From positions 6,438 through 70,437 of the forward strand of contig JAZKDY010000076.1 in the NCBI GenBank assembly GCA_040387325.1: DNA of 64,000 nucleotides, given 5' to 3'. Of this stretch, positions 3,984 through 34,542 are shown one piece after another. How positions within the stretch are numbered: position 1 is the first letter of the stretch; every line of letters begins with the position of its first letter. A program made the position numbers and the translations under genes. The notes beneath the pieces are model-generated. The model had not been told where the DNA came from, made no database searches, and saw only the letters and a list, made by a program, of their open reading frames with translations. The stretch comes from Pseudomonadota bacterium (lineage in GTDB: Bacteria > Pseudomonadota > Gammaproteobacteria > Burkholderiales > Burkholderiaceae_C).

Positions 3984-4055
3984 ATGGCGGCCCGTTTCAT
4001 AACGACGTTGATCGGTTTTGCGCTGCTGATCGCAGTAGCAGCGCTGACGCTGTAA
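3984..4055 (+). CDS. Putative 23-aa single-helix membrane peptide
   Basis: MAARFITTLIGFALLIAVAALTL*; ends 3 nt before the glucan synthase ATG and lies downstream of box 3. Confidence 0.3.
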   Translation: MAARFITTLIGFALLIAVAALTL

Positions 4056-16493: not shown

Positions 16494-16509
16494 TGTTCGC
16501 GAGCGAACA
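16494..16509. promoter_or_regulatory. Crp/Fnr-type box 5 (bidirectional)
   Basis: Perfect arms TGTTCG-CGAG-CGAACA; CAAGGT 21 nt away on + (16531-16536) and TAAGCT 21 nt away on - (16472-16467). Confidence 0.8.
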
Positions 16510-17161: not shown

Positions 17162-17186
17162 GGCTGCCCCGGAAGGGGCTGGCTTG

Positions 17187-17936
17187 CTACGCGCTGCGCT
17201 TGTGCACGTCGCTGAGCAGGCGCTCCAGTTCCTTCTTGACCACGCCATAACATTCACAGGCACTGGCTTCCAGGCCCTGGCGTTCCAGCACCGCGATGTG
17301 GCCGCGCCGGTAGCGTATGTAGCCAGCCGTCTGCAGATTGCCGGCGGCTTCGGTCACGCTTTCGCGGCGCACCCCCAGCATGCTGGCCACCAGTTCCTGG
17401 GTCATCACCAGCTCCCGCGCAGGCACGCGGTCCATGGTCAACAGCAGCCAGCGGCACAGTTGCTGTTCCACGGAGTGGTGGCGGTTGCACACGGCAGACT
17501 GGGCCATCTGTGTCATGAGGGCCTGGGTGTAGCGCAACAGCAGGCGCTGCAGCGCGCCAGCACGGTTGAATTCACTTTGCAGCACATGGCGGTCCAGCCG
17601 ATAGGCGTGTCCCGCTGTCTGTACCACAGCCGAGCTGGGGGTGGTGTCGCCGCCCATGAACAGCGAAATGCCTACCACCCCTTCGTTGCCCACACCAGCC
17701 GTCTCGGCCGATGCGCCGGTCTCGGTCACATAGTGCAAAGACACGATGGAGGTGGTGGGGAAGAATGCGTGGCGCAGTTGTGTTCCGGGTTCGTAGAGCA
17801 TCTGGCCCAGTGCCATGGGCACCAGTTCCAGGTGCTGTGCAAACAGGTCAAAGTCTGCCTGCGGCAGGGCTGCCAGCAGGTGGTTGTGTTGGGGGCTATG
17901 CAGGAGGGTCATGTCTTTGGTGCGGGTTGTCGGCAT
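17187..17936 (-). CDS. Crp/Fnr family transcriptional regulator
   Basis: NHLLAALP N-terminus, cNMP-like beta-roll, HTH MTQELVASMLGVRRESVTEAA, C-terminal CECY. Confidence 0.9.
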   Translation of the reverse strand: MPTTRTKDMTLLHSPQHNHLLAALPQADFDLFAQHLELVPMALGQMLYEPGTQLRHAFFPTTSIVSLHYVTETGASAETAGVGNEGVVGISLFMGGDTTPSSAVVQTAGHAYRLDRHVLQSEFNRAGALQRLLLRYTQALMTQMAQSAVCNRHHSVEQQLCRWLLLTMDRVPARELVMTQELVASMLGVRRESVTEAAGNLQTAGYIRYRRGHIAVLERQGLEASACECYGVVKKELERLLSDVHKRSA

Positions 17937-17937
17937 G

Positions 17938-18759
17938 TCAGGCACCCGTCACGATTTCAACGCCTATGCCCCGGTAACCCAGGAAACGGCTGCTGCGGCT
18001 GAACATGGGCTCGCCGCTGACGCGGTACTGCTGCTCTGAGCCGTCCGGCAGGTGCCGGTGGAAGATCAAATCCAGAAAGGGTTCACGCGCTGCAATGGTT
18101 GCGCGCAGGGCTTCACGATCGCCGGTATCCCAACCGTCGGTCTGTGCAGTTTTTGAAATACCCTTGTGCGTGTCGACCTGCAGGCCCAGCATTTCCAGCA
18201 CCGGGCCTGAGACCTTGGTGAAGCTGCCGTTTTCGTCCTGCTCCCAGTACCAGTCTGACGCCAGCTCGGTCAGGCTGCGGTAACGCGCCTCACTCTCGCG
18301 CAACTCGGCGGTGCGCTCCAGCACCGTTTGTTCCAGCACCTTGTTGAAGTCGGCCAGTTTTTTGTACAGCAGGCGCACCTCCAGCATATTGTGGATTCGG
18401 GTCTTGACCTCGACCAGGTCAAACGGCTTGCTGACAAAGTCCTTGGCACCGGCTTGCAGTGCACGCAGCTTGTGGCCCGGCTGGGCCGTGAGCACAATAA
18501 CCGGCAGGTAGGGGTCCATCGTGTTGGTCTTGAGGCTTTCCATGACCTGGAAGCCATCCATCACCGGCATCTGCAGGTCCAGCAAAATCAGGTCGTAGGC
18601 GTTCTTGCGGTGCAGTGCACACACCTCTTCAGGCACCAGGGTGGAGGTGACGCCGGTGTAACCGGCGGACTGCAGCAGTTGCTCCAGCAATTGCACATTG
18701 GATTCCTGGTCATCAACGATCAGTATCCTGGCGTTGAGAATGTCGGCAGATTGGATCAT
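17938..18759 (-). CDS. Response regulator, REC-coiled coil-PAS, no output domain
   Basis: ILIVDD, LLDLQMP, LTA, SKPFD; then RYRSLTELASDWYWEQD PAS. Confidence 0.9.
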   Translation of the reverse strand: MIQSADILNARILIVDDQESNVQLLEQLLQSAGYTGVTSTLVPEEVCALHRKNAYDLILLDLQMPVMDGFQVMESLKTNTMDPYLPVIVLTAQPGHKLRALQAGAKDFVSKPFDLVEVKTRIHNMLEVRLLYKKLADFNKVLEQTVLERTAELRESEARYRSLTELASDWYWEQDENGSFTKVSGPVLEMLGLQVDTHKGISKTAQTDGWDTGDREALRATIAAREPFLDLIFHRHLPDGSEQQYRVSGEPMFSRSSRFLGYRGIGVEIVTGA

Positions 18760-18822
18760 GGGGTTATTCCTCGGGATGATTGGGTAGGTTGGTGCAGGGT
18801 TCTTGCGCGATGGGGAAATGTT

Positions 18823-20178
18823 TCATGGCAGGCTTTGTTCTGGGGTGCCTGCATGGGCCAGCTCTATCCAGAACACACTGCCCACACCAATGGTGCTGCG
18901 CGCGCTAATGGTGCCGCCCATCAATTCCACCAGGCGTTTGCTCAGTGCCAGGCCTACACCGGTACCTTCGTCAGAGCCGCTGTCGCGGCCCAGGCGGTTG
19001 AAGGGCTGGAACAGGTGGCTGATCTTGTCGGCCGACAGGCCATAACCGCCGTCTATGACACTCACACGGATACGCTGGTCTGCCTGCACACTGCACGACA
19101 CCTCCACCGTGCCACCGGTCCGGTTGTACTGGATGGCGTTGGACAGCAGGTGTACCAGGACCTGGTGGAGCCGGGATTTGTCAGCAGACACTTTCAACGC
19201 GCCATGGGGTTGCTCACACACCATGCGGATATTGCGGGCCTGCGCCGCGGGGGCCACGCTGGCCTGGCTGGAGGTCAGAACTTCGCACAATGCGACTGGT
19301 TCGGATTGCAGCTGCAATCGCCCGGACTCGATTGCCGTCAGGTCCAGAATCTCGCCGATCAAATCCAAGAGGTACCAGCCCGCACGCAGGATACGGTCTA
19401 TGCTGCTTTTTTGCGTGGCAGTGGGTGCGGGGTCGCCCAGGTCCATCAGCTGGGCAAAGCCAAGAATGGCGTTCAGTGGTGAGCGCAACTCGTGGCTCAT
19501 ATTGGACAAAAAGTCGGATTTGGCCAGGCTGGCTTTTTCGGCCACGGCCTGTGCCACCTGCAGCGCCTGGTTTTTTTCCAGCAGGATCGCGTCCATGGCT
19601 TTGCGTGCACTGATGTCGGTCAGCACCAGACGCTGGACCGGTGCATGGTCCGCTTCGTGCGCCAGGCTGATCTGCACGTGGGCCCAGAACACCGCACTGT
19701 CGCGCCGGACCAGCTGCAGCTCACAGCCCTGGGGCAGCCCGGATTCAAAGAGGGCTTTGCGGCAGGTGTAATACGTGTCCTGGTCCGACCGGGCAATCAG
19801 GCTGCTCATGGGTTTGTTGACGACATCGCTGCGGGCCATGTTCAGCAAAGCGGCGGCGGTGAAGTTCACCTCCAGAACCAGGCCCTGCTCGCTGATGGTG
19901 CAATACCCCACGGGTGCCAGGTCGTACAGGTCAAAGTACCGGGCGCGTGCGGCATCCAGCGCGGCCTGGGTTTGGCGCAGTTCGTCGTTCTGCATCTCCA
20001 GCTCAACCTGGTGCACTTGCAGTTCGTGCAGCATGTGCCGCATGGCTTCCGCCGACAGCTCTTGCAGATGGGTTGGTGTCGGGCTGGCTTTGGCGTGGAT
20101 AAGATCTTCGGCCCGCTCACGCAGTCCGTGTCTTGGCCGTTCACTGTGCGGGGCCATGGCGTGCTTTCGGTTGGTCAT
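18823..20178 (-). CDS. PAS sensor histidine kinase
   Basis: HELQVHQVELEMQNDEL coil, PAS, SHELRSPLNAI H-box, N/G1/F/G2 boxes; start codon uncertain (20157-20220). Confidence 0.85.
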   Translation of the reverse strand: MTNRKHAMAPHSERPRHGLRERAEDLIHAKASPTPTHLQELSAEAMRHMLHELQVHQVELEMQNDELRQTQAALDAARARYFDLYDLAPVGYCTISEQGLVLEVNFTAAALLNMARSDVVNKPMSSLIARSDQDTYYTCRKALFESGLPQGCELQLVRRDSAVFWAHVQISLAHEADHAPVQRLVLTDISARKAMDAILLEKNQALQVAQAVAEKASLAKSDFLSNMSHELRSPLNAILGFAQLMDLGDPAPTATQKSSIDRILRAGWYLLDLIGEILDLTAIESGRLQLQSEPVALCEVLTSSQASVAPAAQARNIRMVCEQPHGALKVSADKSRLHQVLVHLLSNAIQYNRTGGTVEVSCSVQADQRIRVSVIDGGYGLSADKISHLFQPFNRLGRDSGSDEGTGVGLALSKRLVELMGGTISARSTIGVGSVFWIELAHAGTPEQSLP

Positions 20179-23152
20179 CCGCCGCGGGGTCTGCAGTGCG
20201 CTCGGTGGTGGCGATGGCATACATTTCGCCGGCGTTGTCGGTCAGCGCGGTGGAGGTGATGGAGACCTCGATCTCGGCCCCCTCCTTGGTCAGACGCCTG
20301 GTGCGGTAGGGCTCCAGCGTCTTGGCGTCCCCCAACTGTGCCACCTTGGAGGCCGCGTTGTCCTGCAGTGCCTTGGGCAGGCGGTCGCGCACATTCAGGG
20401 TCAGCGCCTCGGCCTCGGTCCAGCCGTACATGCGGGTGGCACCCGGGTTCCACGCGATGGTGCGGCCCTGCAAATCCTGCACGGTGATGGCGTCGTGGGC
20501 GTCGCGCACCACCACCGCCAGCCGCAACAGCGCGTTGGCCTTGTGCAGGTCCTCGCGCACCCGCACGATCTCGGTGATGTCGACAAAGGTGATCACTGCC
20601 CCCTCAATCACATTGTCCAGCGTGCGGTAGGGCAGTATGCGCATGGTGTACGACCTGCCCTCCACGGTCTTTACGGTGACCTCTTTGGGGACCAGTGTGG
20701 ACAGTACGCTTTGTGCATCGGCATTCAGCCGGTCATACCCGACCAGGTTGGACATGATGTGGCCCATGGGGCGCCCCACATCGCTCAGTATCAGATTGAC
20801 GATGCGGGTTGCCGCCGGTGTAAAACGCAGGATGCGCAGATCGTGGTCCACAAAGATGGTGCCAATGCCCGTGCCCGCCAGCAGGTTGTTCATGTCATTG
20901 TTGGCGCGGGACAGGTCGCCCACCTTGGTCTGCAGTTCGGTGTTGACGGTGGACAACTCTTCGTTGATGGACTGCAGCTCTTCCTTGGAGGTCTCCAACT
21001 CCTCGTTGGTGGACTGCAGTTCTTCATTGACCGACTGCATCTCTTCGTTGGATGACTTCAGCTCCTCGTTGGAGGTCTCCAGCTCTTCGTTGGCCGCGTT
21101 CAAATAGTCTTCCTTGGCCTGCAGCTCTTCCCTCAGCTCGGCAATGTGGGCATGGATGTCCTGTGTCTGCTGGTCTGTACCAGCTGGCAGCGCCGTGGGC
21201 GCAGCATGCGCCGGTGCAATGCCGGTGGCGGGCGCTTCCTCCAGCATCACCAGGTACAGGCGGGACTCCAGCGCGTTGGCAGGTCCGGCCTCTACGGGCA
21301 CCACGCCCAGGTTGACCAGGGTGTGGTGGCCGTTGGTCCTGACACGCAAGCCGGACACATGGACCGGGGTCTTGACGGTGCCTGCCTTGTGCAGGCTGGT
21401 GGTCAGGTCGTGGCGCAAACCCTCGCGCGCCATCTTCAGGATGTTGTTGATACCGGCCTCACCCGGGGCGGGCTCCAGGTACATGCCCACGCGCCCATGC
21501 AGGTACAGAATGTCGCCCTGGCTGTTGACCAGGGCAGCCGCCTTGGCCACATGGCGCAACAGGGTCTGTTCGGTCAGCTCGCGCAAGGACAGCTTGGGCG
21601 GAGACGTGTTTTTGCCAGGGCTCAATTGCAGGGCTCCATTCTTATGGGTAGGGGGCAACAGGAAACGGCCCAGGGCCGCACGTTGCGCGCCCTGAAAATC
21701 TTCCTTGCGCTGGTAGACCTTGGATTTGCGGTCCAGCGGCATGTACAGATCACTGAAATCACCCACGGTTTCCGAGGTACCCAGAAACAACAGGCCACCG
21801 GGATTGAGCGCGTAGTGGAACAGCGAGATCACCTTCTTCTGCAGCTCCGCGCCCAGATAAATCAGCAGATTGCGGCAACTGACCAGGTCCAGCTTGGAGA
21901 ACGGAGGGTCCTTGATCAGGTCCTGCTCGGAGAACACCAGCAGGTCGCGGATGACCTTGTGCACGCGGTAGGTGTCGCCCTCGGGTTCGCGGGTGAAGAA
22001 ACGCGCCAGGCGCTCGGGGCTGATGTCTTCTGCAATGCTGGCCGGGTAAATACCGGCACGGGCCACGGCGATGGCACGGCTGTCGATGTCAGTGGCAAAC
22101 ACCTGGATCTTGTAACTCTGCTTGAGCATCTCCACCCGCTCCTGCAGCAGGATAGCGATGGAGTAGGCCTCTTCGCCGGTAGAGCAGCCCGTGGTCCAGG
22201 CGCGCACCACGCCGCCCGCAGGCTTGCCGCTGAACAGCTTGGGTATGACCAGTGTCTCCAGTGCGGCAAAGGCCTCGGGGTCGCGGAAGAAATTGGTGAC
22301 ACCTATCAGCAGGTCGCGGAACAGCGCCTCTACCTCGGCCGGAGTCTGCTGCAGGTACTTGGCATACGCATCCATGCCGTCGATCTGGTGCACCGCCATG
22401 CGACGGTCAATGCGCCGGTAGATGGTGCTGGGCTTGTACTGGGAGAAGTCGTGCCCGGTCTGGGTGCGCAGCAGGATGAATATCCGCTTCAAGGCCCCCT
22501 GGGACTGGGGCGCCGCCGTGGCGGCAGCACGTGGCAGTTTGCCCAGCGCATGGCTGACATAGGCGATGAGCTGGCCGGGCATTTCCGCCGGAGGCAGCAC
22601 GTAGTCCACCAGGCCGGTGGCCATCGCGTGGTGCGGCATGGAGTCAAATTCAGACGAGGCCGCAGTCTGCGCCATGGCCATGCCGCCGCCGTCCTTGATG
22701 GCCCGCACACCCAGGGTGCCGTCACTGCCCGTGCCCGATAGCACGATGCCGATGGCCCGCTCCTGCTGGTCCTGCGCCAGCGAGGTGAACAGAAAATCAA
22801 TCGGCAGGCGGTGGCCGCGCGGTGCGGTGGGCTCCAGCAACTGCAGCGCTCCGTTCAGGAAGGCCATGTCGCGGTTGGGCGGGATGATGTACACACAGTT
22901 GGCCTGCACCAGCATGCCGTCCGCCACCTCGAACACCGGCATGCGGGTGGTGCGCTGTACCAGTTCGGTCAGCAGGCTGCCGTGGTCCGGCGCCAGGTGC
23001 TGCACCAGCACAAAGGCCATGCCCGGCTCACCCACGGCCGGCATGCCGGAGAAAAAGGCCGCAAACGCTGCCAGGCCACCTGCGGACGCGCCGATACCCA
23101 CAATCGGGAAGGCGGCGCGTGGTTCCGCGTCTGGCGTGGCCGAGGGTATCAA
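20141..23152 (-). CDS. CheB-CheR-PAS-coiled coil-PAS-PAS fusion protein
   Basis: GASAGG/QHL/SGTGSDG esterase triad; GVTNFFRD, GCSTGEE, CRNLLIY methyltransferase; NEEL heptads; TTG start with AGGAG RBS. Confidence 0.9.
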   Translation of the reverse strand: MIPSATPDAEPRAAFPIVGIGASAGGLAAFAAFFSGMPAVGEPGMAFVLVQHLAPDHGSLLTELVQRTTRMPVFEVADGMLVQANCVYIIPPNRDMAFLNGALQLLEPTAPRGHRLPIDFLFTSLAQDQQERAIGIVLSGTGSDGTLGVRAIKDGGGMAMAQTAASSEFDSMPHHAMATGLVDYVLPPAEMPGQLIAYVSHALGKLPRAAATAAPQSQGALKRIFILLRTQTGHDFSQYKPSTIYRRIDRRMAVHQIDGMDAYAKYLQQTPAEVEALFRDLLIGVTNFFRDPEAFAALETLVIPKLFSGKPAGGVVRAWTTGCSTGEEAYSIAILLQERVEMLKQSYKIQVFATDIDSRAIAVARAGIYPASIAEDISPERLARFFTREPEGDTYRVHKVIRDLLVFSEQDLIKDPPFSKLDLVSCRNLLIYLGAELQKKVISLFHYALNPGGLLFLGTSETVGDFSDLYMPLDRKSKVYQRKEDFQGAQRAALGRFLLPPTHKNGALQLSPGKNTSPPKLSLRELTEQTLLRHVAKAAALVNSQGDILYLHGRVGMYLEPAPGEAGINNILKMAREGLRHDLTTSLHKAGTVKTPVHVSGLRVRTNGHHTLVNLGVVPVEAGPANALESRLYLVMLEEAPATGIAPAHAAPTALPAGTDQQTQDIHAHIAELREELQAKEDYLNAANEELETSNEELKSSNEEMQSVNEELQSTNEELETSKEELQSINEELSTVNTELQTKVGDLSRANNDMNNLLAGTGIGTIFVDHDLRILRFTPAATRIVNLILSDVGRPMGHIMSNLVGYDRLNADAQSVLSTLVPKEVTVKTVEGRSYTMRILPYRTLDNVIEGAVITFVDITEIVRVREDLHKANALLRLAVVVRDAHDAITVQDLQGRTIAWNPGATRMYGWTEAEALTLNVRDRLPKALQDNAASKVAQLGDAKTLEPYRTRRLTKEGAEIEVSITSTALTDNAGEMYAIATTERTADPAADDQPKARHGPAQ

Positions 23153-23158
23153 ATACTA

Positions 23159-23212
23159 TGCTCCTGAATGTATAGCGTTACTATCATATTGGACGGGGGC
23201 TGTAGGCCAATT
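23159..23212 (-). repeat. 54-bp dispersed element, copy C
   Basis: Ungapped match to 26528-26581, 42778-42831 and 55102-55155. Confidence 0.7.
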
Positions 23213-23216
23213 TTCC

Positions 23217-26200
23217 TTAAGCGCTTCCCTCTGGAGCGGCCTGCGCCAGCTCCAGCCCCTGGTCCAGCGCCAGCATGAACTCGGCAATCTTGATGGGTTT
23301 GGTCAGGTAGCGGAAGAAGCCGGCCTCCAGACCCTTCTCCACATCGCGCGGCATGGCATTGGCGCTGAGTGCCAGCACCGGTATGTGGGTGGTCATGGGG
23401 TCGTCGTGCAACAGGCCCAACGCCTGCAGGCCACTGATGCCCGGCAGGTTGATGTCCATCAGGATCACGTCAGGCAGGTGGGTGCGCGCCATGGCGATGC
23501 CACGCACACCGTCTTCGGCGCGTAACAGGCGTATGTCGGGCCGGCGCGATATCAGCTGTGCCACCAGTTCCATGTTGGCTTCGTTGTCTTCCACATACAG
23601 CAGGGTGCGCACGTTGCGGTCGGTCTGCGCAGGCGCGGGCAGCAGCGCCAGCTCCTCGTCGGGGTCCAGTACCAGGGACTGGGGATCTGCCAGGTTCAGT
23701 TCGACCCAGAAGTCGCTGCCAACCCCCACCGTGCTGTGGGCACCGATGCTGCCGTTCATCAGTTCCACCAGGCGTTTGCTCACCACCAGGCCAATGCCCG
23801 TGCCTTCTTCGTCGCTGTCCTCCTGGCCCAGGCGGTTGAAGGGTTCGAACAGCTGGGCCAGCTTTTTGGCTGACAGGCCTTCGCCGGTGTCGCGCACGCT
23901 GATGTGCATACGTGTCTTGCCGGCGGGCCGGAAGGTCACGTCCAGGGATCCATCCTGCCGGTTGTACTTGATGGCATTGGTCAGCAGGTTCACAAACACC
24001 TGTTTCACACGGGTGCGGTCGGCCTGCACATAACAGGGCGCCTTGAAGTTGGGAAAACGCATCTGGATGCCCCGCCGCCTGGCCTGGGGCTCCATCATGG
24101 TCTGGCAGTCGCGCAATACCTCTTGCAGCGACACCGGCTCCATGGACAGGGACAGCTTGCCGGACTCGATCAGCGCCAGGTCCAGTATCTCGTTGATCAG
24201 CTCCAGCAGGTACCAGCCCGCCTTGAGAATCTGCTCGATGCTGGCCCTTTGTGTTGCGGTGGGCGGGGGCACGCCGGAGTCCATCAACTGCGCAAAACCC
24301 AGAATGGCGTTCAGTGGCGAGCGCAGCTCGTGGCTCATGCTGGACAGGAATTCCGACTTGGCCAGGTTGGCCTTGTCGGCGGTGGACCGGGCCGCTTCCA
24401 GTTCAATGGCCTTGATCTGCAGGGACTTGTCGAGCTGGAAACGCTCGGCCTCGGCCAGTTTGCGGGCCGTGTTGTCGGTGCCAATCAGCAGGTAACCAAT
24501 GATGGTCTGGTCATTGCTGCGCAGTGCAGTGACCGACACCAGGGCTGGCAGGCGTGTGCCGTCCTTGCGGATGTAGCTCAATTCGTAAATGTCTTCCATG
24601 CCGCGCGAGGCCTTGTAGGCCAGTGCCTCAAACCCCGGGGCGATGTCGGTTTCATGCTCGGCCGCAAGTGCCATCGCCCGGGCAATGAGCTCTTCGGGGT
24701 CGGAGATGTCGGCCGGCGTGACCTGGTTCACCATTTCGGCCGCGGTATAGCCCAGCATACGCTCGGCGCCCACATTGAAAATCTGGATCACGCCCAGGGC
24801 ATCGGTGGCGATGCAGGAGAAGTTGGCGCTGCTGAAGATGGCACTTTGCAGCGCGCCGGCCTTGCGCAGTGCTTCTTCGGCCTGTTTGCGGGTACTGATG
24901 TCACGCAGGATGCCGGTGAAGTAGAGCTGGCCGCCCAGCGACATTTCGCTGACGGCAATCTCCAGCGGAAAAAAGCTGCCGTCCTTGCGAAAACCCATGA
25001 CCTCGCGGCCCTGGCCCAGAGCCCGGGCCTCGGGGCTTACGCCATAGTGCTCCAGTGCAACATGGTGTTGTTCCTGGTCCAGCTCGGGTATCAGAAAACC
25101 AAAGGCCTTGCCGGTCAGCTCCGCGGCGCTGTAGCCAAACATCTGTTCAATGGCAGGGTTGGCCGACTCAATGATGCCGCCTTGGGCCTGCAGAGTGACG
25201 ATGCCGTCGCCCACGGTGTTCAGAATGGTCTGCACCCTTGCCGCGCTGTCGCGCAGGGTTTGTTGGGCTGCGTACTCGGCGGTCACATTGCGGAACACCA
25301 GCACGGCACCAACCACCTGGCCTTGCAGGTCACGCACCGGGGCGCAGCTGTCGGCAATGTCGAACTCACGGCCATCCCGCGCAATGAGTACCGTGTGGTT
25401 GGCCAGACCCTGGAGGGTGCCGTGCGCCAGCGCGCGGGCGACAGGAATGGTGGCGACGTGGCGGTCCGCCTTGTTGACAATATGGAAGACTTCGTTCACC
25501 GGGCGCCCCTCGGCCTGGGCCTGGGTCCAGCCAGTCATGTCCTGGGCGACCGGGTTGAGCAGCGTCACGCGGGCCTGTGCATCGGTAGCGATGACGGCGT
25601 CGCCGATCGAGTTGAGGGTGACGGTGAGTTTCTGGGTGCTGTCCTGCAGTGCGTCGTTGCTGGTCTGCAGCAGGGTATTGGTGCTGATTTGTTCGTCCAG
25701 CAGATGCCGGGTTTCCGCATGCACCAGATTTTTCAGGCGCTGCTGGGCGGCGCGGTAGCTGGAGTAGGCAAAGTACAGCGCCAGCAGCAGGGCCAGCACA
25801 CCCATGCCAATGATGGTGGCGAATAGGCGGCGCATGCTGCGGTCAAAACCTGCGTTGTGCTGCGCCTGGATGTCGGTCTCGATCTGGACGATGCCACGCA
25901 TCTCCTGGCGTATGCCGTCCATCAGGCGTTTGCCCTCGTCGCTGTTGATCAAGGCCAGTGCACCCACGGCATCGCTGTTGCGGCGCAAGGCAATGGTCTT
26001 GTCCATTTCTGCCAGTTTGGCGTCCAGCAGGGGGGCAATCGTGTCCACATGTTTCTGTGCTGGTGCGCTGGCGGTCAACTGGCGCAACACGGCCAGATGG
26101 GCCTTGATGTTGTCGCGCACGCCCTGGTAGGGCTCCAGATAGGTCTCTCCGCCGGTGAGTGCATAACCGCGCTGGCTGGTTTCTGCCACCGTCAGCGTGG

Positions 26201-26360
26201 ACATCAGATCGTCCGCGGCCGTGATGATGACGCGCGAGTCGCGGCGGTGGTCGGAGGCCTGTTCGATCTGGTGGTAAGTCCAGAACGTGAACACCATACC
26301 CAGCGACAGGAGCACTAACACGGCGGCAAGCCAGACAAATGTTTTATGGGTGGTTTTCAA
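23217..26360 (-). CDS. CHASE3-PAS-PAS-PAS hybrid histidine kinase with REC
   Basis: TM, AETSQRGYALTG (CHASE3), three PAS, SHELRSPLNAI, C-terminal YVEDN...MDINLP...TKP. Confidence 0.9.
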   Translation of the reverse strand: MKTTHKTFVWLAAVLVLLSLGMVFTFWTYHQIEQASDHRRDSRVIITAADDLMSTLTVAETSQRGYALTGGETYLEPYQGVRDNIKAHLAVLRQLTASAPAQKHVDTIAPLLDAKLAEMDKTIALRRNSDAVGALALINSDEGKRLMDGIRQEMRGIVQIETDIQAQHNAGFDRSMRRLFATIIGMGVLALLLALYFAYSSYRAAQQRLKNLVHAETRHLLDEQISTNTLLQTSNDALQDSTQKLTVTLNSIGDAVIATDAQARVTLLNPVAQDMTGWTQAQAEGRPVNEVFHIVNKADRHVATIPVARALAHGTLQGLANHTVLIARDGREFDIADSCAPVRDLQGQVVGAVLVFRNVTAEYAAQQTLRDSAARVQTILNTVGDGIVTLQAQGGIIESANPAIEQMFGYSAAELTGKAFGFLIPELDQEQHHVALEHYGVSPEARALGQGREVMGFRKDGSFFPLEIAVSEMSLGGQLYFTGILRDISTRKQAEEALRKAGALQSAIFSSANFSCIATDALGVIQIFNVGAERMLGYTAAEMVNQVTPADISDPEELIARAMALAAEHETDIAPGFEALAYKASRGMEDIYELSYIRKDGTRLPALVSVTALRSNDQTIIGYLLIGTDNTARKLAEAERFQLDKSLQIKAIELEAARSTADKANLAKSEFLSSMSHELRSPLNAILGFAQLMDSGVPPPTATQRASIEQILKAGWYLLELINEILDLALIESGKLSLSMEPVSLQEVLRDCQTMMEPQARRRGIQMRFPNFKAPCYVQADRTRVKQVFVNLLTNAIKYNRQDGSLDVTFRPAGKTRMHISVRDTGEGLSAKKLAQLFEPFNRLGQEDSDEEGTGIGLVVSKRLVELMNGSIGAHSTVGVGSDFWVELNLADPQSLVLDPDEELALLPAPAQTDRNVRTLLYVEDNEANMELVAQLISRRPDIRLLRAEDGVRGIAMARTHLPDVILMDINLPGISGLQALGLLHDDPMTTHIPVLALSANAMPRDVEKGLEAGFFRYLTKPIKIAEFMLALDQGLELAQAAPEGSA

Positions 26361-26490
26361 AGGGACGTACTCTCAAATTTGGCGTTGCTCGGACCCTTAT
26401 ACGCGCATCCCGTGGCGCCGCGGCATTTACTTCTGCTGGCGCATGGAAGGGGCCAGTGCGCCAAGCGTAGCCAAACCCGGGCATTCCCTC

Positions 26491-26506
26491 TGTTCGGTGG
26501 CGCACC
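26491..26506 (-). promoter_or_regulatory. Crp/Fnr-type box 6 (signalling operon, autoregulatory)
   Basis: GGTGCG-CCAC-CGAACA then GAG; TACGCT 21 nt downstream (26469-26464). Confidence 0.75.
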
Positions 26507-26612: not shown

Positions 26613-26628
26613 GGTGTGTTCGCGCACA
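26613..26628 (+). promoter_or_regulatory. Crp/Fnr-type box 7 (OsmB-like)
   Basis: GGTGTG-TTCG-CGCACA then GAC; AAGAAT 21 nt downstream (26650-26655). Confidence 0.7.
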
Positions 26629-26727: not shown

Positions 26728-26952
26728 ATGAACATGAACAACAGGTTTTACGCCGTGGTACCGGCCGTGTTGCTGGCATCGGCCTTGGGTATGGGTGGCT
26801 GCGCAGGCATGAACCACCAGGAACGCAGCACCGCAACCGGCGCTGTGATTGGTGGCGCAGCCGGCGCCGTGCTGGGCGGCGGGGTGGGCGGCACCGCCGC
26901 CGGTGCGGTGGTGGGGGGCGTGGTTGGCCACGAAGTGGGTAAGCCAAAATAA
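26728..26952 (+). CDS. OsmB-like glycine-zipper lipoprotein
   Basis: GGAG RBS; lipobox MGGC; TATGAVIGGAAGAVLGG...GGVVGHEVG. Confidence 0.85.
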   Translation: MNMNNRFYAVVPAVLLASALGMGGCAGMNHQERSTATGAVIGGAAGAVLGGGVGGTAAGAVVGGVVGHEVGKPK

Positions 26953-27020: not shown

Positions 27021-28796
27021 CTAGAGGGCCCGGCGCGCGTACCGCTCGAAGGCGGCCACCGGCAACGGCATGCAGAAGTAGAAGCCCTGGTAGGTATGGC
27101 AGCCGGTCGCGCTCAGGAAGTCGCGCTGGGCTTCGATTTCCACCCCTTCGGCGATCACGTTCAGGCCCAGGCTGTGCGCCAGCGCCAGTATGGTCTTGGC
27201 AATGGAGGCGTCGTGGTGGTCGCTGAGGATGTCGCGCACAAAGCTGCGGTCAATCTTCAGCTCGTCCAGTGGCATGCGTTTGAGGTAGGACAGCGATGAA
27301 TAACCCGTGCCAAAGTCGTCCAGCGAGAAACACACCCCCTTGGCCTTCAGCGCAAACATCTTCTCTATGACCGCGGGCACGTTGTCCACCAGCAGGCTTT
27401 CGGTCAGCTCCAGCTTCAGGCGCTGGGCATTGGCGCCCGACGTGGCCAGGGCGGCCAGGACCTGCTCCACAAAGTCGCTTTGGCGGAACTGGTAGGCGCT
27501 GACGTTGACGGCCAGGTTCAGGTGCTGGGTTTTGGGCTTGTCGGCCCAGCGCGCCAGTTGTTCACACGCGGCCTGCAGCACCCACTGGCCCAGCGGCAGT
27601 ATCAGGCCGGTTTCTTCTGCCAGCGGAATGAAATCACCCGGTGGCATGAGGCCGTTTACGGGGTGCTGCCAGCGCAGCAGCACTTCGGCACCCATGGCGC
27701 GTCCATCACCCACCACCTGGGGCTGGAAGTGCAGCACAAACTGCTGTGCCGCTATGGCATTGCGCAGCTCGCCCTCCAGCGCCGCGCGCTCCAGGATGGC
27801 CGTTTGCATGGCGGGGTCGAAAAACTGCAAGCCGTTGCGGCCTATCTCCTTGGCCTTGTACATGGCCAGGTCGGCCTGTTTCAGCAAATCCTCCATCGAC
27901 TCCCGGGTGCCATTGAACAGCGTGGCGCCTATGCTGGCCGTGCTGCGATGCTCCACCTCACCCAGCCGGTAGGGCTGGTTGAGCGCCGCCAGGATCTTCT
28001 CCCCCACGTCCTGCGCCTGGTTGGCTGCCTCCTGCCGGCGTGGGTGCAGGCTCGCCAGGACCACCACAAATTCGTCGCCACCCAAGCGGGCTACGGTGTC
28101 CCCCTCGCGCACACAGTCGGTGAGCCGCTGTGCCACTTGTTGCAGCAGCAGGTCGCCCATGGCGTGGCCCAGGGTGTCGTTCAGGGTCTTGAAATGGTCC
28201 AGGTCCAGAAATACGACCGCACCGTAATTGGCACTGCGCGTGCTGACGATCATGGCCTGCTGCAAACGGTCCAGCAGCAGGGTGCGGTTGGGCAGACGGG
28301 TCAGCGGGTCGAAGAAGGCCAGCTCGTTGATCCGCTCGTCGGAGCGTTTGCGGGCACTGATGTCGCGGATATTGCACTGGATGACGGTGACACCCGCGCA
28401 GTCGTAAGTGTTGCTGACAAACTCCACGGCCACACTGTCGCCCGACCGGGTGCGCAGCGGCAGGTCTTCGTACCGCACATAACCTCTGGACTGCAGCTCA
28501 GAGAATTTCTCCTGGCTTTCGGCCACATCGGCAAAGGCGCCGACCTCCCAGAGCTTCTTGCCCAGCAGTTCGGCATGGGAGTAACCCAGCAGCTCCGTCA
28601 GGAAGGGGTTGGCGTCTTCAATCTCGGCCGTGCTGGCATTGAGCAGCAGGATGCCGTCGCGGGCGGTTTCGAACAGCCTGCGGTAACGCATCTCCGACAC
28701 ACGCAAGGCCTCGGGTGTTGCGGCCGTGGCAGGCGCAGTGCTGTCGGGTGGCCTGGCGACGCCCTTGGGTTTGCGGGGTTTGATGGGGTTTTGCAT
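27021..28796 (-). CDS. PAS-GGDEF-EAL c-di-GMP cyclase/phosphodiesterase
   Basis: REGD I-site and GGDEF; EVLLRW, DDFGTGYSS, KIDRSFV, AEGVE; start placed at MQNP (AGGA RBS) because the upstream ATG overlaps the predicted -10. Confidence 0.9.
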   Translation of the reverse strand: MQNPIKPRKPKGVARPPDSTAPATAATPEALRVSEMRYRRLFETARDGILLLNASTAEIEDANPFLTELLGYSHAELLGKKLWEVGAFADVAESQEKFSELQSRGYVRYEDLPLRTRSGDSVAVEFVSNTYDCAGVTVIQCNIRDISARKRSDERINELAFFDPLTRLPNRTLLLDRLQQAMIVSTRSANYGAVVFLDLDHFKTLNDTLGHAMGDLLLQQVAQRLTDCVREGDTVARLGGDEFVVVLASLHPRRQEAANQAQDVGEKILAALNQPYRLGEVEHRSTASIGATLFNGTRESMEDLLKQADLAMYKAKEIGRNGLQFFDPAMQTAILERAALEGELRNAIAAQQFVLHFQPQVVGDGRAMGAEVLLRWQHPVNGLMPPGDFIPLAEETGLILPLGQWVLQAACEQLARWADKPKTQHLNLAVNVSAYQFRQSDFVEQVLAALATSGANAQRLKLELTESLLVDNVPAVIEKMFALKAKGVCFSLDDFGTGYSSLSYLKRMPLDELKIDRSFVRDILSDHHDASIAKTILALAHSLGLNVIAEGVEIEAQRDFLSATGCHTYQGFYFCMPLPVAAFERYARRAL

Positions 28797-28873: not shown

Positions 28874-28889
28874 TGTTCGCCAACGAACC
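28874..28889 (+). promoter_or_regulatory. Crp/Fnr-type box 9 (crystallin gene)
   Basis: TGTTCG-CCAA-CGAACC then GAC; TAGTCT 21 nt downstream (28911-28916). Confidence 0.8.
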
Positions 28890-28945: not shown

Positions 28946-30064
28946 ATGAAACCCGTTTTACGATTGACACTGACCGCTATTGCGGCGCTGATGGCAGGCC
29001 AGGCGTTTGCCGAGGTCACCTTCTTCGAACGCGAAAATTTCCAGGGCCGTTCCTACACGGCCCAGGCGCAGGTCGTGAACCTGCAGCGTGCCGGATTCAA
29101 TGACCGCGCCTCTTCCGCCATTGTGGGGGGAGGACGTGGCGCGCGGTGGGAGGTGTGTGAAGACGCCCGCTTTGGCGGCCGCTGCATGATTCTGCGCCCC
29201 GGCCATTACCCGTCGCTGAGCGCCATGGGTTTGAATGACCGCGTCTCGTCGGTGAAGCCGGTGGGTCGCAACGGCCGGGATCTCGACGAGCGGATGGCTC
29301 CAGCACCGCTGCCGTCGCAGGTCACCTTCTATGAGAACGAGGGCTTCCAGGGCCGCACCTTCTCTGCCGACCAGCAGGTTGAAGACTTCTCCCGCACAGG
29401 TTTTAATGACCGGGCCTCGTCCGTGGTGGTACTGGGCCAGCGCTGGGAGGTGTGCAACAACGCCCGCTTCGGCGGAGACTGCATGGTGCTGAACCCCGGC
29501 CGTTACCCCTCGCTGGCGGCCATGGGCATCAATGACCGCATTTCGTCCGTGCGTGCACTGGACTGGAATGTGCGGGTTGATGACCGCCGTTATGCACCGG
29601 CACCTACGCCGGTTTATGACAACCGCCGTCGCCAGGATGAACGCATCTTTGAAGCCAACGTGACATCAGTGCGTGCCGTGGTCGGCCCGCCCGAGCAGCG
29701 TTGCTGGATGGAGCGTGAAGAGGTCGCCGCAACCCGTGGTGAGCCCAATGTTGGGGGTGCTGTTCTCGGTGCACTGATCGGTGGTGTCTTGGGTCACCAG
29801 GTCGGCGGTGGTGTTGGCAAAGACCTCGCAACCGCGGGTGGTGCCGTGGCCGGCGGCGTAATAGGTTCCAATGTAGGCCGCAACAACAGTGGCACACCCG
29901 CTACAACACGTGACGTGCAGAAATGCGCGACACGACCCAGCAATGCCGCACCGGCGTTCTGGGATGTGTCGTACAACTTCCGTGGCGTGGAACACCGCAT
30001 CCAGATGACAACCCAGCCGGGCCCCACGATTCCCGTCAATGCCCAGGGTGAACCCCGCAGCTAA
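28946..30064 (+). CDS. Secreted protein: two betagamma-crystallin domains plus glycine-zipper 2TM domain
   Basis: Signal peptide; duplicated F..ENFQGR...FNDRASS...WEVC...FGG.C...PG.YPSL..MG.NDR.SS; GAVLGALIGGVLGHQVGGG. Confidence 0.85.
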   Translation: MKPVLRLTLTAIAALMAGQAFAEVTFFERENFQGRSYTAQAQVVNLQRAGFNDRASSAIVGGGRGARWEVCEDARFGGRCMILRPGHYPSLSAMGLNDRVSSVKPVGRNGRDLDERMAPAPLPSQVTFYENEGFQGRTFSADQQVEDFSRTGFNDRASSVVVLGQRWEVCNNARFGGDCMVLNPGRYPSLAAMGINDRISSVRALDWNVRVDDRRYAPAPTPVYDNRRRQDERIFEANVTSVRAVVGPPEQRCWMEREEVAATRGEPNVGGAVLGALIGGVLGHQVGGGVGKDLATAGGAVAGGVIGSNVGRNNSGTPATTRDVQKCATRPSNAAPAFWDVSYNFRGVEHRIQMTTQPGPTIPVNAQGEPRS

Positions 30065-30155: not shown

Positions 30156-30171
30156 CGTACGCTTGCGCACG
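30156..30171 (+). promoter_or_regulatory. Crp/Fnr-type box 10 (cardiolipin synthase)
   Basis: CGTACG-CTTG-CGCACG then GAC; TAAGCT 20 nt downstream (30192-30197). Confidence 0.75.
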
Positions 30172-30264: not shown

Positions 30265-31665
30265 ATGAAAAAGAACCTGTGCCTGCATTCGACCATCCGT
30301 CTTTTTCGCCTGGCCAGCATGGCGGCACTGGTGTCGCTTTCTTCTGCCTGCGCCTCACTTCCCGATGTCAGCTACCTCAAGGTGGTTGCGCCATCGGCAT
30401 CTGGCCCCACGGTCACCGGCACCAACGGCACGCTGAGCAAGAAGGCCAGTACCGCACTGCTGCCCAAACGCTGGAAAAATTCGCATATTGACGTCAATGC
30501 ACTGGCATCGCTGGAAGAACTGGCTACCGGCAAGCCGCTGATTGCCGGCAACAAGGTGAGCCTGCTGTACGACGGCCCCCAGACCATGGCCTCCATGATG
30601 GAGGCGATTGCCGCAGCCAAGGACCATATCAACCTGGAGACGTATATCTTCGACCAGGACGAGATCGGCCTGCAGTTTGCGCAATTGCTGATCGCGCGCC
30701 AACGTGCCGGCGTGCAGGTGCACATCATCTACGACGCAGTCGGCACGATGGGAACCCCCCAGGCCTTTTTTGACAGCATGCGCGAAGCGGGCATACGCCT
30801 GGTGGCGTTTAACCCCGTCAATCCACTGAAGCTGATGGGCCCCTGGTCACCCAATAACCGCGACCACAGAAAGTTGCTGGTGGTGGACGGCAAGGTGGCG
30901 TTTACCGGAGGGGTCAACATCAGCGGTGCCTATGCCAACAGTTCGTTGTTCCGATCCAGGAACCGCAGCCCGGACAAGATCGGGTGGCGCGACACACATA
31001 TCCGTGTGGAGGGCCCGGCGGTTGCGTCCATGCAGTGGGAGTTCCTGAGCAGCTGGGTAAGCCAACCCTCTCCCGAACTGGGCGACAGCAATTTCTTCCC
31101 CGCATTGGGCAATGTGGGTGACAAGCTGGTGCGGGTGCTGGCCAGTGGACCCGACACGGACCAGGACATCTATACGGCACACGTCCTGGCCATTGACTCC
31201 GCGGTGAAGTCCATCCACATCACCAGTGCCTACTTTGTTCCCGATGTGCAGGTTCTGCAGGCCTTGACCCGGGCTGCGCGCCGCGGCGTGGATGTGAAAG
31301 TCATACTGCCCGGTGTCACCGACGTTGGCCTGGTGTTTTATGCAGGCCGCTCGTTCTACGAAGAAATGCTCAGCAGCGGGATTCGGGTGTACGAGTTGCA
31401 AATCGCAGTCCTGCATGCCAAGACTGCGGTGATTGACCGGCTGTGGTCCACGGTTGGGTCGACCAATATCGACACGCGGAGTTTTCTGCACAACTACGAG
31501 CTCAATGTGGTGGTGCTGGACAACGCGTTCGCCGAAAGCCTGGAGTCTGCGTTTGAAGAGGATCTGCGCTTCTCCACCGAGGTGACTGCAGAAGCCTGGG
31601 CCAAGCGCCCCACGTCGGACCGCCTGAAGGAATGGGCGGCCCGACGTCTGGAGTATTGGCTGTAG
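30265..31665 (+). CDS. cls: Cardiolipin synthase (phospholipase D family, ClsB-like)
   Basis: Two HKD motifs, HRKLLVVD and HAKTAVID; SAYFVP, GSTNID; start uncertain (30265 or 30319). Confidence 0.88.
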   Translation: MKKNLCLHSTIRLFRLASMAALVSLSSACASLPDVSYLKVVAPSASGPTVTGTNGTLSKKASTALLPKRWKNSHIDVNALASLEELATGKPLIAGNKVSLLYDGPQTMASMMEAIAAAKDHINLETYIFDQDEIGLQFAQLLIARQRAGVQVHIIYDAVGTMGTPQAFFDSMREAGIRLVAFNPVNPLKLMGPWSPNNRDHRKLLVVDGKVAFTGGVNISGAYANSSLFRSRNRSPDKIGWRDTHIRVEGPAVASMQWEFLSSWVSQPSPELGDSNFFPALGNVGDKLVRVLASGPDTDQDIYTAHVLAIDSAVKSIHITSAYFVPDVQVLQALTRAARRGVDVKVILPGVTDVGLVFYAGRSFYEEMLSSGIRVYELQIAVLHAKTAVIDRLWSTVGSTNIDTRSFLHNYELNVVVLDNAFAESLESAFEEDLRFSTEVTAEAWAKRPTSDRLKEWAARRLEYWL

Positions 31666-34190: not shown

Positions 34191-34206
34191 AGTGCGCGGG
34201 CGCACG
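34191..34206 (-). promoter_or_regulatory. Crp/Fnr-type box 11 (rcnB-osmC operon)
   Basis: CGTGCG-CCCG-CGCACT then GAC; TATCTT 21 nt downstream (34169-34164). Confidence 0.8.
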
Positions 34207-34233
34207 TAATGCGTGCGAAAAAAATCAGGTGTG

Positions 34234-34249
34234 TGTATGCCATCGCACC
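34234..34249 (+). promoter_or_regulatory. Crp/Fnr-type box 12 (csbD)
   Basis: TGTATG-CCAT-CGCACC then GAT; TAGCAT 21 nt downstream (34271-34276). Confidence 0.7.
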
Positions 34250-34341: not shown

Positions 34342-34542
34342 ATGAATAAAGAGCAAATCCAGGGTACCGCCAAGGACATCGCCGGCAAAGTGCAAGAGGG
34401 AGCAGGCAAGCTGGTGGGCAGCACAGAACAACAGCTCAAGGGTCTTGAGAAACAAATTACCGGCAAGGCTGAGAAGCGCGCTGGCGACGTGAAGGAACTG
34501 GTGCAGGACGCCAAGAACATCGTCAAGGACGCTGTCAAGTAA
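34342..34542 (+). CDS. csbD: CsbD family general stress protein
   Basis: MNKEQIQGTAKDIAGKVQEGAGKLVG...GKAEKRAGDVK; AAGGA RBS. Confidence 0.9.
   Translation: MNKEQIQGTAKDIAGKVQEGAGKLVGSTEQQLKGLEKQITGKAEKRAGDVKELVQDAKNIVKDAVK

Follow-up and report, generated by a model that had tools for sequence, protein, structure and literature searches.

A three-gene module encoding a PAS-HK-REC kinase, a receiver protein that ends in a PAS domain (REC-PAS) and a regulator of the Crp family is conserved, together with a palindromic DNA box, in Beta- and Gammaproteobacteria, and in the genome of a Rhodoferax sp. it forms part of a minus-strand operon of five co-directional genes (17187-26360), as defined by gene calls and Pfam. 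Coordinates refer to the window, i.e., the whole stretch of 64,000 nucleotides that was analysed, which lies on the 115-kb contig C76. The explanation that we favour, with a probability of roughly 0.55, is that Crp binds the boxes and activates both its own operon and a regulon of stress genes, and that the kinases act on it via REC-PAS. We infer that the box is bound by this Crp and not by a paralogue, that regulation is positive and that the signal runs from kinase to REC-PAS to Crp. The module appears to be unstudied, no paper describing it having been found, and the 16-bp box is apparently undescribed as well.

Gene content of the operon and its conserved core

The first gene, HK1 (23217-26360, minus strand), encodes a membrane hybrid kinase of 1047 aa with CHASE3, three PAS, HisKA, HATPase and REC domains (Pfam), and starts with a TTG codon that is kept in relatives. 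Its C-terminal ~550 aa are orthologous to the module's core PAS-HK-REC kinase, with 55-65% identity to the module kinases of other genomes over residues ~490 to 1040. The second gene, CheBR (20141-23152, minus; 1003 aa), is a fusion of CheB methylesterase, CheR_N, CheR, a coiled coil of the NEEL-heptad type, PAS_10 and PAS, in which the GASAGG, VQHL, GSDG, TNFFRD and GCSTGEEAYS motifs were all found. HK2 (18823-20178, alternative start 20220, minus; 451 aa) is a kinase without receiver, made of a coiled coil, PAS, HisKA and HATPase, and its DHp domain, H-box included, is nearly identical to that of HK1. REC-PAS (17938-18759, minus; 273 aa) comprises a receiver, a coiled coil and a PAS domain, with no output domain; the PAS match is weak in Pfam, yet the SDWYWEQD...GYRGIG motif is clear in the alignment, and the receiver residues D16, D17, D61, T91 and K111 are all intact, in columns that are invariant among the orthologues. 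The last gene, Crp (17187-17936, minus; 249 aa), carries the cNMP_binding and HTH_Crp_2 domains, and an alternative start at 17912 gives the 241-aa form that is usually annotated.

The order CHASE3-3xPAS-HK-REC, CheB-CheR-PAS, PAS-HK, REC-PAS, Crp/Fnr given in the original prediction is thus confirmed by gene calls and Pfam, and it is the same in the relative G023. Its statement that the first four proteins lack a DNA-binding domain is also borne out, Pfam finding no such domain in HK1, CheBR, HK2 or REC-PAS, which makes Crp the only DNA-binding protein of the operon. HK1 and CheBR are separated by 64 nt, the 5′ end of HK2 overlaps the 3′ end of CheBR by 38-80 nt, HK2 and REC-PAS lie 63 nt apart and the REC-PAS/Crp junction reads TGAcATG. 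Inside the operon, terminator-like and promoter-like sites are no more frequent than in shuffled sequences. A GC hairpin (GCCCC-TTCC-GGGGC, 17166-17179), read from the sequence in the 25 nt that separate the Crp stop codon from the convergent BON gene, is possibly a bidirectional terminator; it has no T tract and was not reported by the terminator scan.

As regards the proposed "phosphorelay plus methylation" front end, the first term is not supported by the operon: no Hpt domain occurs in it or on contig C76. The genome has 19 Hpt matches elsewhere, one of which might conceivably serve a relay from the HK1 receiver. CheBR, to which the second term refers, is present, and both CheBR and HK2 are accessory and not part of the core. 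The Che-pathway components of the operon are limited to the CheB and CheR domains, and no CheA, CheW or MCP was found among the Pfam-scanned genes of the first two thirds of the window. Among the loci compared, CheBR was found only in the Rhodoferax genome and in G023, most modules lack both CheBR and HK2, and in the congener G021 a deletion scar replaces the cassette. The core is made up of PAS-HK-REC, REC-PAS and Crp. Both the CHASE3 extension and the cassette of CheBR-PAS and second kinase are lineage-specific add-ons, and it is the core, not the full gene set, that co-occurs with the box across genomes.

Of the 22 loci with a full-length REC-PAS gene, 17 have it directly after PAS-HK-REC and next to a gene of the Crp family, both in Betaproteobacteria (Undibacterium, Duganella, Burkholderia sp., Hydrogenophilales) and in Gammaproteobacteria (Methylobacter, Lysobacterales, Steroidobacteraceae, Panacagrimonas). 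In four loci (L076, L078, L083 and L090) the neighbour is a REC-GGDEF protein instead of Crp, so that the tie of REC-PAS to Crp is not a strict one. In the Crp tree, a single clade (100/91) contains every copy that adjoins HK-REC-PAS, and a single sub-clade (99/98) every copy that comes directly after REC-PAS. Members of this sub-clade, the Crp of the operon among them, have PSSA in place of the PSRA found in the other members of the family; the conserved pocket Arg that is here replaced by Ser is retained by nearly all other family members compared. Since the association with HK-REC-PAS and the Arg-to-Ser change each fall on a single branch, a single evolutionary event, not many, is indicated.

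The palindromic box and its candidate regulon

The box motif, T.TGTnCG.TA.CGnACA.A, is enriched in the intergenic DNA of the genome and concentrated on contig C76. In the window, TGTTCG-N4-CGAACA with at most 3 mismatches has 41 matches against 25.1 +/- 4.8, a number reached in 0 of 100 shuffles. The scoring matrix draws exclusively on 16 boxes that precede crp genes of other genomes and shows conservation also outside the search pattern, at the flanking T/A (26/32) and the central TA (26/32). With this matrix, 34 sites of at least 13 bits are found in the genome (4.47 Mb), of which 23 are intergenic, in the 9.6% of the genome that is intergenic DNA; the reversed-sequence control gives 6 sites of at least 13 bits, 1 of at least 17 and 0 of at least 19. 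Contig C76 holds 11 of the 38 intergenic sites of at least 11 bits. Moreover, 16 genomes with the Crp family have 126 pattern matches versus 69 in the control, and 25 genomes without it have 87 versus 89.

In ~30 loci of other Beta- and Gammaproteobacteria (L037-L054 and L069-L089), the same motif directly precedes a Crp-family gene or the operon to which that gene belongs, which makes it very probable that this Crp subfamily has the box as its operator. Autoregulation would, on the same sequence basis, be a trait of the Crp family, and the 16-20-bp palindrome at these loci suggests that Crp binds its site as a dimer. From the perspective of promoter geometry, 12 of 49 oriented promoters have a TAnnnT that starts exactly 21 nt past the box and 17 have one at 20-22 nt, all other offsets being represented at most twice each; in the self-promoters of other genomes it is found at 21 nt in 12 of 33 and at 22 nt in 5.

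One box is a perfect palindrome (TGTTCGCGAGCGAACA, 16494-16509, 24.0 bits) directly downstream of the five-gene operon, between a STAS-MlaE ABC operon (minus) and a BON/OsmY-like gene (plus), and it is conserved in G021 and G023. A box of 22.3 bits (45964-45979) precedes hemerythrin-catalase genes (minus), with TACCGT at 21 nt on that side, and a glycine-zipper gene (plus). Another, of 19.0 bits (28874-28889), lies between a PAS-GGDEF-EAL gene (27021-28796, minus) and a beta-gamma-crystallin/glycine-zipper gene (28946-30064, plus), with TAGTCT 21 nt downstream on the plus strand. On the plus strand are also found a box of 17.4 bits (30156-30171) upstream of a PLD-type, cardiolipin synthase-like gene (30265-31665) and one of 15.4 bits (3921-3936), with no TAnnnT at 21 nt, upstream of a GH94 cyclic beta-1,2-glucan synthase-like gene (4116-12503, 2795 aa). 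Two weaker boxes (12.8 and 12.7 bits, within 34191-34249), with TATCTT and TAGCAT at 21 nt, separate RcnB-OsmC-flavodoxin genes (minus) from csbD (34342-34542, plus).

On these sequence grounds, a box regulon of stress genes, comprising BON/OsmY, Mla-type ABC, OsmC, CsbD, catalase, cardiolipin synthase-like and glucan synthase genes, appears well founded. Such boxes stand in front of the five-gene operon and of roughly 25-40 other promoters, about a third of them on contig C76, where the predicted targets further include glycine-zipper lipoproteins and the PAS-GGDEF-EAL enzyme, the Mla-type genes being those of a STAS-MlaEFD transporter and the catalase being hemerythrin-catalase. The box also precedes OsmY/BON, OsmC, CsbD, catalase and envelope lipoprotein genes in numerous other Beta- and Gammaproteobacteria, nitrifiers, methanotrophs and plant-associated Oxalobacteraceae among them. 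In Proteobacteria, general stress control is commonly credited to RpoS in the Beta- and Gammaproteobacteria or to PhyR-EcfG in the Alphaproteobacteria, and for the module a putative operator sequence, a promoter geometry and a candidate regulon are now available. The nlpD-rpoS locus is present and intact in the Rhodoferax genome, and through it the stress genes may be under additional, conventional control.

The Crp protein, its paralogues and its control

Crp matches PF00027 with 30.2 bits (cut-off 27.5) and PF13545 with 50.4 bits (cut-off 27). Its AlphaFold model (pLDDT 91.5) has the canonical Crp fold with a long dimerisation helix (128-153) and aligns to MtbCRP, FNR, GlxR, NtcA and Clp with TM 0.72-0.81 (Foldseek), at only 13-21% identity to any solved family member; a plain sequence search of the PDB gave no match. 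Like E. coli CRP, it has two domains, a beta-barrel and a winged HTH, with an R-E pair in the recognition helix (GVRRE(S/G)VTE, invariant across the family), and its putative site is a 16-bp palindrome with outer TGT...ACA. This outer pattern is that of Crp-type regulators with TGT-N10-ACA sites, such as Clr of S. meliloti (TGTT-N8-AACA). Unlike in CRP, the inner half-site is nCG and not GA, giving TGTnCG-N4-CGnACA, and the predicted regulon consists of stress and envelope genes rather than carbon catabolism. The Glu and Arg of the phosphate cassette, which hold cAMP in CRP, are also missing: in the profile alignment, GEL of GlxR aligns to G-I-S and RTSSA to T-P-S-(R/S)-A. The family has an invariant C150-N-R-H-H and C227-E-C229 and a nearly invariant C161 (at least 90%). 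An N-terminal Cys cluster of the FNR type is absent, no Cys occurring in the first 149 residues.

The genome encodes two more Crp paralogues, on contigs C160 and C72, ~53% identical. All three members share the GVRRE recognition helix and its R-R-E residues, which makes the occupant of any given box ambiguous and, with the intact nlpD-rpoS locus, weakens the "master switch" of the original prediction. The operon could accordingly be a target and not the master, if the C160 or C72 copy occupied the boxes and the operon's own Crp were minor or preferred another site. The C160 copy does stand behind its own 2xPAS-HK-REC kinase with its own box upstream, and in relatives the base at position 4 of the box, whether T, G or A, does not follow the type of paralogue. 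Nevertheless, the boxes cluster around the operon's locus, each family member elsewhere has its own upstream box, the REC-PAS-following clade included, and the paralogues differ at the third position of the contact helix (E versus M or L), so that we consider this explanation unlikely.

In the favoured explanation, the membrane CHASE3-PAS kinase HK1 and the cytoplasmic PAS kinase HK2 would constitute a multi-input two-component front end. As their DHp domains are nearly identical, they probably phosphorylate the same receiver, that of REC-PAS, and the CheB-CheR-PAS fusion may add a methylation-based adjustment. REC-PAS, with neither a DNA-binding nor an enzymatic output, would then pass the signal to Crp post-translationally, most likely by protein-protein contact with the Crp clade that lost the pocket Arg. 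It is also conceivable, with a similarly low probability to that of control by a paralogue, that kinases and Crp are co-expressed and not directly wired: REC-PAS would act on c-di-GMP enzymes or another target, and Crp would sense a signal of its own, either a small ligand or redox or metal through its invariant Cys and His residues. A box-controlled PAS-GGDEF-EAL gene adjoins the operon, REC-GGDEF genes replace Crp in the four loci mentioned above and the c-di-GMP-binding Clp (3iwz) is among the structural relatives of Crp, all of which would suit such an arrangement. Against it, REC-PAS and Crp are translationally abutted here and no more than 74 nt apart across the REC-PAS-following clade, which has moreover lost the pocket Arg, and all 22 members of the Crp clade adjoin HK-REC-PAS, in one or the other of two gene orders, a constancy that points to a functional tie beyond co-expression.

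Known systems offer partial parallels. In Xanthomonas, the hybrid kinase RpfC and the response regulator RpfG, which lacks a DNA-binding domain, control the Crp-family regulator Clp post-translationally; RpfG is a phosphodiesterase of the REC-HD-GYP type, and falling c-di-GMP levels release Clp. The components proposed here are alike and control by a second messenger would resemble this case, whereas REC-PAS, unlike RpfG, ends in PAS and has no enzymatic domain. NtcA-PipX, the structures of which (2xko, 9guk) are also among the relatives of Crp, shows that a small partner protein, and not ligand alone, can set the activity of a Crp-family activator; PipX, however, is Tudor-like and PII-controlled and is no response regulator, and a contact between REC-PAS and Crp would be its counterpart here. 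As in FixL-FixJ-FixK of rhizobia, and with FixLJ known from Burkholderia as well, one pathway would link a PAS kinase and a response regulator with a member of the Crp/Fnr family; FixJ differs in having a DNA-binding domain and controlling fixK transcriptionally, REC-PAS being receiver and PAS only. In Burkholderia, Crp-family genes adjoin two-component genes (BCAM0287-0289), and in the lxa low-oxygen locus a palindromic box is repeated across a stress cluster whose regulators are themselves induced (PMC3721108). The lxa/Anr-type motif is TGA-N6-TCA (PMC3721108), unlike the box described here.

With PhyR-NepR-EcfG and RsbV/W-SigB, to which the operon had been likened, the proposed system would share a phosphorylation-controlled regulator without DNA-binding domain upstream of a self-activating factor and a stress regulon, and the same kinds of target gene recur (CsbD, OsmC, catalase, BON). 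The resemblance would be functional only: none of the five operon proteins has a sigma, anti-sigma or anti-anti-sigma domain (Pfam), and the output would be an activator of the Crp type that acts together with the holoenzyme of RpoS or of the housekeeping sigma factor.

The module raises the question of how a Crp-type factor may be controlled by a response regulator that ends in PAS. A more specific version, which is speculative but which we rate a little above the two alternatives already discussed, is that the PAS domain of phosphorylated REC-PAS binds and switches a Crp that gave up ligand sensing with the change of the pocket Arg to Ser, that HK1 and HK2 set a self-amplifying stress regulon alongside RpoS and that CheB-CheR was captured in this lineage. 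If so, REC-PAS would be a new kind of two-component output, and the substrate of CheB-CheR may be the NEEL coiled coil of the enzyme itself or else a kinase, bringing a chemotaxis-like adaptation to a transcriptional switch. Since the five-gene form adds a periplasmic sensor and a CheB-CheR enzyme to the core, it is a natural case for asking what orphan CheBR fusions methylate.

The operon promoter

The putative operator of the operon promoter, box A (26491-26506, minus strand), reads GGTGCGCCACCGAACA and is followed exactly 21 nt downstream by the -10 hexamer TACGCT (26464-26469, minus), ~100 nt upstream of HK1; the sequence confirms both elements as originally predicted. From the position of TACGCT the transcription start is predicted near 26457, and the 21 nt that separate the 16-bp box from the -10 bring the centre of the box near -41.5. 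E. coli CRP acts in this way at class II promoters such as galP1, where the site is likewise centred at -41.5 in place of a -35 element. Most likely, a Crp dimer would bind TGTnCG-N4-CGnACA at this position of promoters devoid of a -35 element. The fixed 21-nt distance fits class II activation and hence positive autoregulation; by activating its own operon, Crp would establish a positive feedback. The claim that Crp/Fnr induces its own cascade and the surrounding island is in this way supported by the self-box, the geometry and the boxes of the stress genes.

Box A scores 18.0 bits, ranking 12th in the genome, and has one mismatch to TGTnCG-N4-CGnACA, in the promoter-distal half, the promoter-proximal half CGAACA being perfect. 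The literal 16-mer is not repeated (3 matches with at most 3 mismatches versus 2.15 expected). In the two closest relatives the orthologous sites are degenerate (9.8 bits in G021, 1.3 bits in G023), and self-activation of the CHASE3-type operon may therefore be weak or recent; their position is kept, as are the proximal half-site and, at the same 21-nt spacing, TACGAT or TACGCT. That box A is a chance, decaying or repressing site and an ordinary promoter drives the operon is very improbable, since the low scores in the relatives, the mismatch and a sigma-70-like match in the HK1-CheBR gap (2.0 expected by chance) are outweighed by the rarity of such scores in the reversed control, by the spacing and the elements kept in both relatives, by self-boxes of the same geometry being the rule in the Crp family and by the absence of a -35-like hexamer at the usual distance from the -10.

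Further upstream, a weak box B (GGTGTGTTCGCGCACA, 26613-26628, plus strand, 10.0 bits) faces the divergent glycine-zipper lipoprotein gene (26728-26952), with AAGAAT 21 nt downstream and a TGTGCG half-site that is kept in G021 and G023.

The five-gene signalling operon

The window lies on a contig of 115 kb in a metagenome-assembled genome from a Rhodoferax sp. (86.7% complete; 4.47 Mb in 186 contigs) and, according to the gene calls, carries five head-to-tail genes on the minus strand, from 26360 down to 17187. Pfam searches returned the domain strings originally predicted: a kinase, HK1 (23217-26360), with CHASE3, three PAS, HisKA, HATPase and REC domains; a CheB-CheR fusion, CheBR (20141-23152), with a coiled coil, PAS_10 and PAS; a second kinase, HK2 (18823-20178), with PAS, HisKA and HATPase; a REC-PAS protein (17938-18759), in which a coiled coil lies between the receiver and a PAS domain; and a Crp/Fnr protein, Crp (17187-17936), composed of cNMP_binding and HTH_Crp_2. 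As also claimed, Pfam assigned no DNA-binding domain to the first four proteins. The junctions measure, in order, 64 nt, an overlap, 63 nt and TGAcATG. Within the operon, a scan for terminators and sigma-70 promoters gave none above the shuffled expectation, and the gaps hold no internal box promoter before REC-PAS or crp. A box match at 18707, inside the REC-PAS gene, was discarded as a promoter since the conserved sequence there encodes the DD motif. The operon lacks an Hpt domain, so that the phosphorelay proposed for it is not established.

Residues about 655-735 of CheBR (window 20950-21190, minus strand) form about ten heptads of the type xNEELxS/T. In these heptads Glu-Glu precedes Ser/Thr, a pattern reminiscent of the sites where chemoreceptors are methylated, so that the coiled coil may be a substrate of the very enzyme to which it belongs.

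The palindromic box and its probable Crp-family owner

The box upstream of HK1 (box A, 26491-26506, minus strand) and the putative -10 hexamer TACGCT (26464-26469, minus strand) were confirmed at their predicted places, 21 nt apart. The exact 16-mer of box A is unique and differs by one mismatch from the palindrome TGTnCG-N4-CGnACA. As a literal repeat it was rejected (3 matches vs 2.15 expected), the enrichment belonging to the palindromic consensus only. Even this is visible solely at stringent thresholds or with a weight matrix: in the window, the looser TGTNCG-N4-CGNACA, allowing up to two mismatches, occurs no more often than expected (43 vs 42.5). The matrix was trained, to avoid circularity, on 16 boxes upstream of Crp-family genes (homologues of the window Crp) from other genomes only. 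At 13 bits or more it retrieved 34 sites in the genome, compared with 6 in the reversed-sequence control, and 23 of the 34 are intergenic, in a genome where intergenic DNA accounts for 9.6%. The motif is thus real. Box A reaches 18.0 bits (rank 12 in the genome), and 11 of the 38 intergenic sites with at least 11 bits fall on the window's contig. Paralogue-specific box variants, with T, G or A at position 4, were considered and dropped, their sorting being inconsistent.

The Crp family occurs in 16 of 41 related genomes, often in several copies, and nearly all the loci examined have a box directly in front of either the Crp-family gene or the gene that opens its operon, as is typical of a factor that regulates itself and of its site. 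Counted over whole genomes, the strict pattern gave 126 matches vs 69 in the control for the 16 genomes with the family, and 87 vs 89 for the 25 genomes without it, these genomes being related and not an independent sample.

Among 49 box-gene pairs of the genome, oriented to the flanking gene, 12 have a TAnnnT hexamer at an offset of exactly 21 nt from the box and 17 have one at 20-22 nt; other offsets occur twice at most. Self-promoters in other genomes show the same preference (12 of 33 at 21 nt, 5 at 22 nt). A 16-bp box with this 21-nt offset is centred at -41.5. At class II promoters, CRP and FNR activators occupy this position and take the place of the -35 element, and on the basis of this geometry the box is read as a predicted activating site. 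An RpoS-type -10 (C at -13) is present in 4 of the 12 TAnnnT promoters, which is uninformative.

The model of the window Crp shows a canonical Crp fold (pLDDT 91.5), with TM scores of 0.72-0.81 to MtbCRP, FNR, GlxR, NtcA and Clp at an identity of only 13-21%; a plain sequence search found no PDB match. The family shares an invariant recognition helix, GVRRE(S/G)VTE. In the alignment to GlxR, the cAMP-holding Glu and Arg have no counterparts. The protein also lacks the Cys cluster of FNR. A rival to control by the kinases is redox or metal sensing by Crp itself: C150-N-R-H-H, C227 and C229 are invariant in 26 of 26 aligned family members, C161 is nearly so, and C150, H153, H154, C227 and C229 may constitute a metal or redox site. 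In the protein, C-N-R-H-H (150-154) closes the dimerisation helix and C-E-C (227-229) opens the extra C-terminal helix.

No paper on the module was found in the open-access literature on the box, CheBR-kinase fusions or Crp proteins with hybrid kinases. The lxa locus of B. cenocepacia resembles the window module in layout, but its motif is the Anr-type TGA-N6-TCA (PMC3721108) and not TGTnCG-N4-CGnACA, which rules it out as the same system.

A conserved core with lineage-specific additions

A REC-PAS-based scan of 185,579 species genomes yielded 22 loci with full-length orthologues, 17 of which have REC-PAS behind a PAS-HK-REC kinase and next to a Crp-family gene. Within this core Crp stands either after the pair of HK and REC-PAS or before it, usually with a strong box ahead of the first gene, and the carriers include Undibacterium, Duganella, a Burkholderia sp., Hydrogenophilales, Methylobacter, Lysobacterales, Steroidobacteraceae and Panacagrimonas. 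A maximum-likelihood tree of 56 family members places all Crp copies adjoining HK-REC-PAS in one clade (support 100/91) and all copies directly after REC-PAS in one sub-clade (99/98). This sub-clade has PSSA in place of the PSRA of nearly all the other members compared; residue 104 of the window Crp, in the loop corresponding to the phosphate-binding cassette for the ligand, is Ser or Ala in the copies after REC-PAS and Arg in nearly all the rest. Each trait, adjacency to HK-REC-PAS and loss of the Arg, lies on one branch and hence points to one evolutionary event. The pattern suggests that the clade following REC-PAS has swapped ligand sensing for control by REC-PAS, a reading to which a c-di-GMP route via the neighbouring GGDEF-EAL enzyme is a rival.

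The co-occurrence of box and gene set across genomes holds for the three-gene core of PAS-HK-REC, REC-PAS and Crp. CheBR and HK2, by contrast, are restricted among the compared loci to the window and to one of the two closest relatives, G023. In the other, G021, whose Crp is 92-93% identical to that of the window, the initial ~35 codons of CheB run directly into the final ~120 codons of HK2 between HK1 and REC-PAS (L035:9930-11150), followed by a separate ORF of ~190 aa with the CheB methylesterase domain only; this arrangement is a deletion scar. The C-terminal half of HK1 is orthologous to the core kinase, while its CHASE3-PAS front is an extension, present also in one Methylobacter locus. 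Since the DHp/H-box segments of HK1 and HK2 are almost identical, the two kinases probably address one common receiver.

Predicted mechanism and regulon

The best-supported reading is that of a class II activator that controls its own operon together with a regulon of stress and envelope genes and takes its input from a two-kinase, one-receiver front end. HK1 and HK2 would signal to one receiver, this to Crp, and Crp to its own operon and to stress and envelope genes. The step from REC-PAS to Crp we infer solely from gene linkage; a predicted complex of the two proteins (alignments A1 for Crp and A2 for REC-PAS) had a median score of 0.30 with the mark at 0.32, which is not evidence for or against binding.

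Several findings limit the master switch originally proposed. Firstly, the genome encodes two further Crp paralogues, on contigs C160 and C72, with identical R-R-E recognition residues. The one on C160, 53% identical to the window Crp, is placed after its own kinase and box in a simpler module without REC-PAS (L059:2802-6549: single-domain REC, box of 11.1 bits, 2xPAS-HK-REC, Crp paralogue and a convergent single-domain REC). Secondly, an RpoS-like sigma factor gene directly follows an NlpD-like LysM/M23 lipoprotein gene. This locus is split across contigs (L056:1324-1833 at the end of C153, L055:1-582 at the start of C107), whose ends overlap by 18 residues at rpoS; the genome therefore has a classical nlpD-rpoS locus, and the Crp system runs beside RpoS, not in its place. 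Thirdly, the sites orthologous to box A are weak (9.8 bits in G021, 1.3 bits in G023), with the promoter-proximal half-site and the -10 retained at equal spacing in both.

Box neighbours in the window comprise BON/OsmY-like proteins, a STAS-MlaE/MlaF/MlaD transporter, glycine-zipper lipoproteins, a PAS-GGDEF-EAL enzyme, a beta-gamma-crystallin protein, a PLD-type cardiolipin synthase-like enzyme, OsmC, RcnB-like and CsbD proteins, a hemerythrin with a large catalase, and a GH94 cyclic glucan synthase. The GC content is even throughout the window (0.57-0.65), so that an island acquired by horizontal transfer was rejected and the term denotes a gene cluster only, not a foreign insert. The predicted regulon appears to include several sensor kinases, since a further 3xPAS-HK-REC hybrid kinase (L061:2954-5645, contig C41:37953-40644) lies behind the top-scoring box of the genome, which reaches 24.2 bits and has TACGCT at 21 nt; this, too, limits the idea of a master switch.

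The putatively box-controlled secreted protein at 28946-30064 has two beta-gamma-crystallin domains and a glycine-zipper 2TM domain, a combination unusual for a stress cluster. The called start of the hemerythrin gene lies 294 nt from its upstream box at 45964 (window 45670-45964), and the interval may be taken up by a small gene missed in the calling or by a long leader. Finally, an 80-aa ORF (3813-4055) called over the box at 3921 is probably a spurious product of crude gene calling, and this box is better read as lying upstream of the glucan synthase gene.
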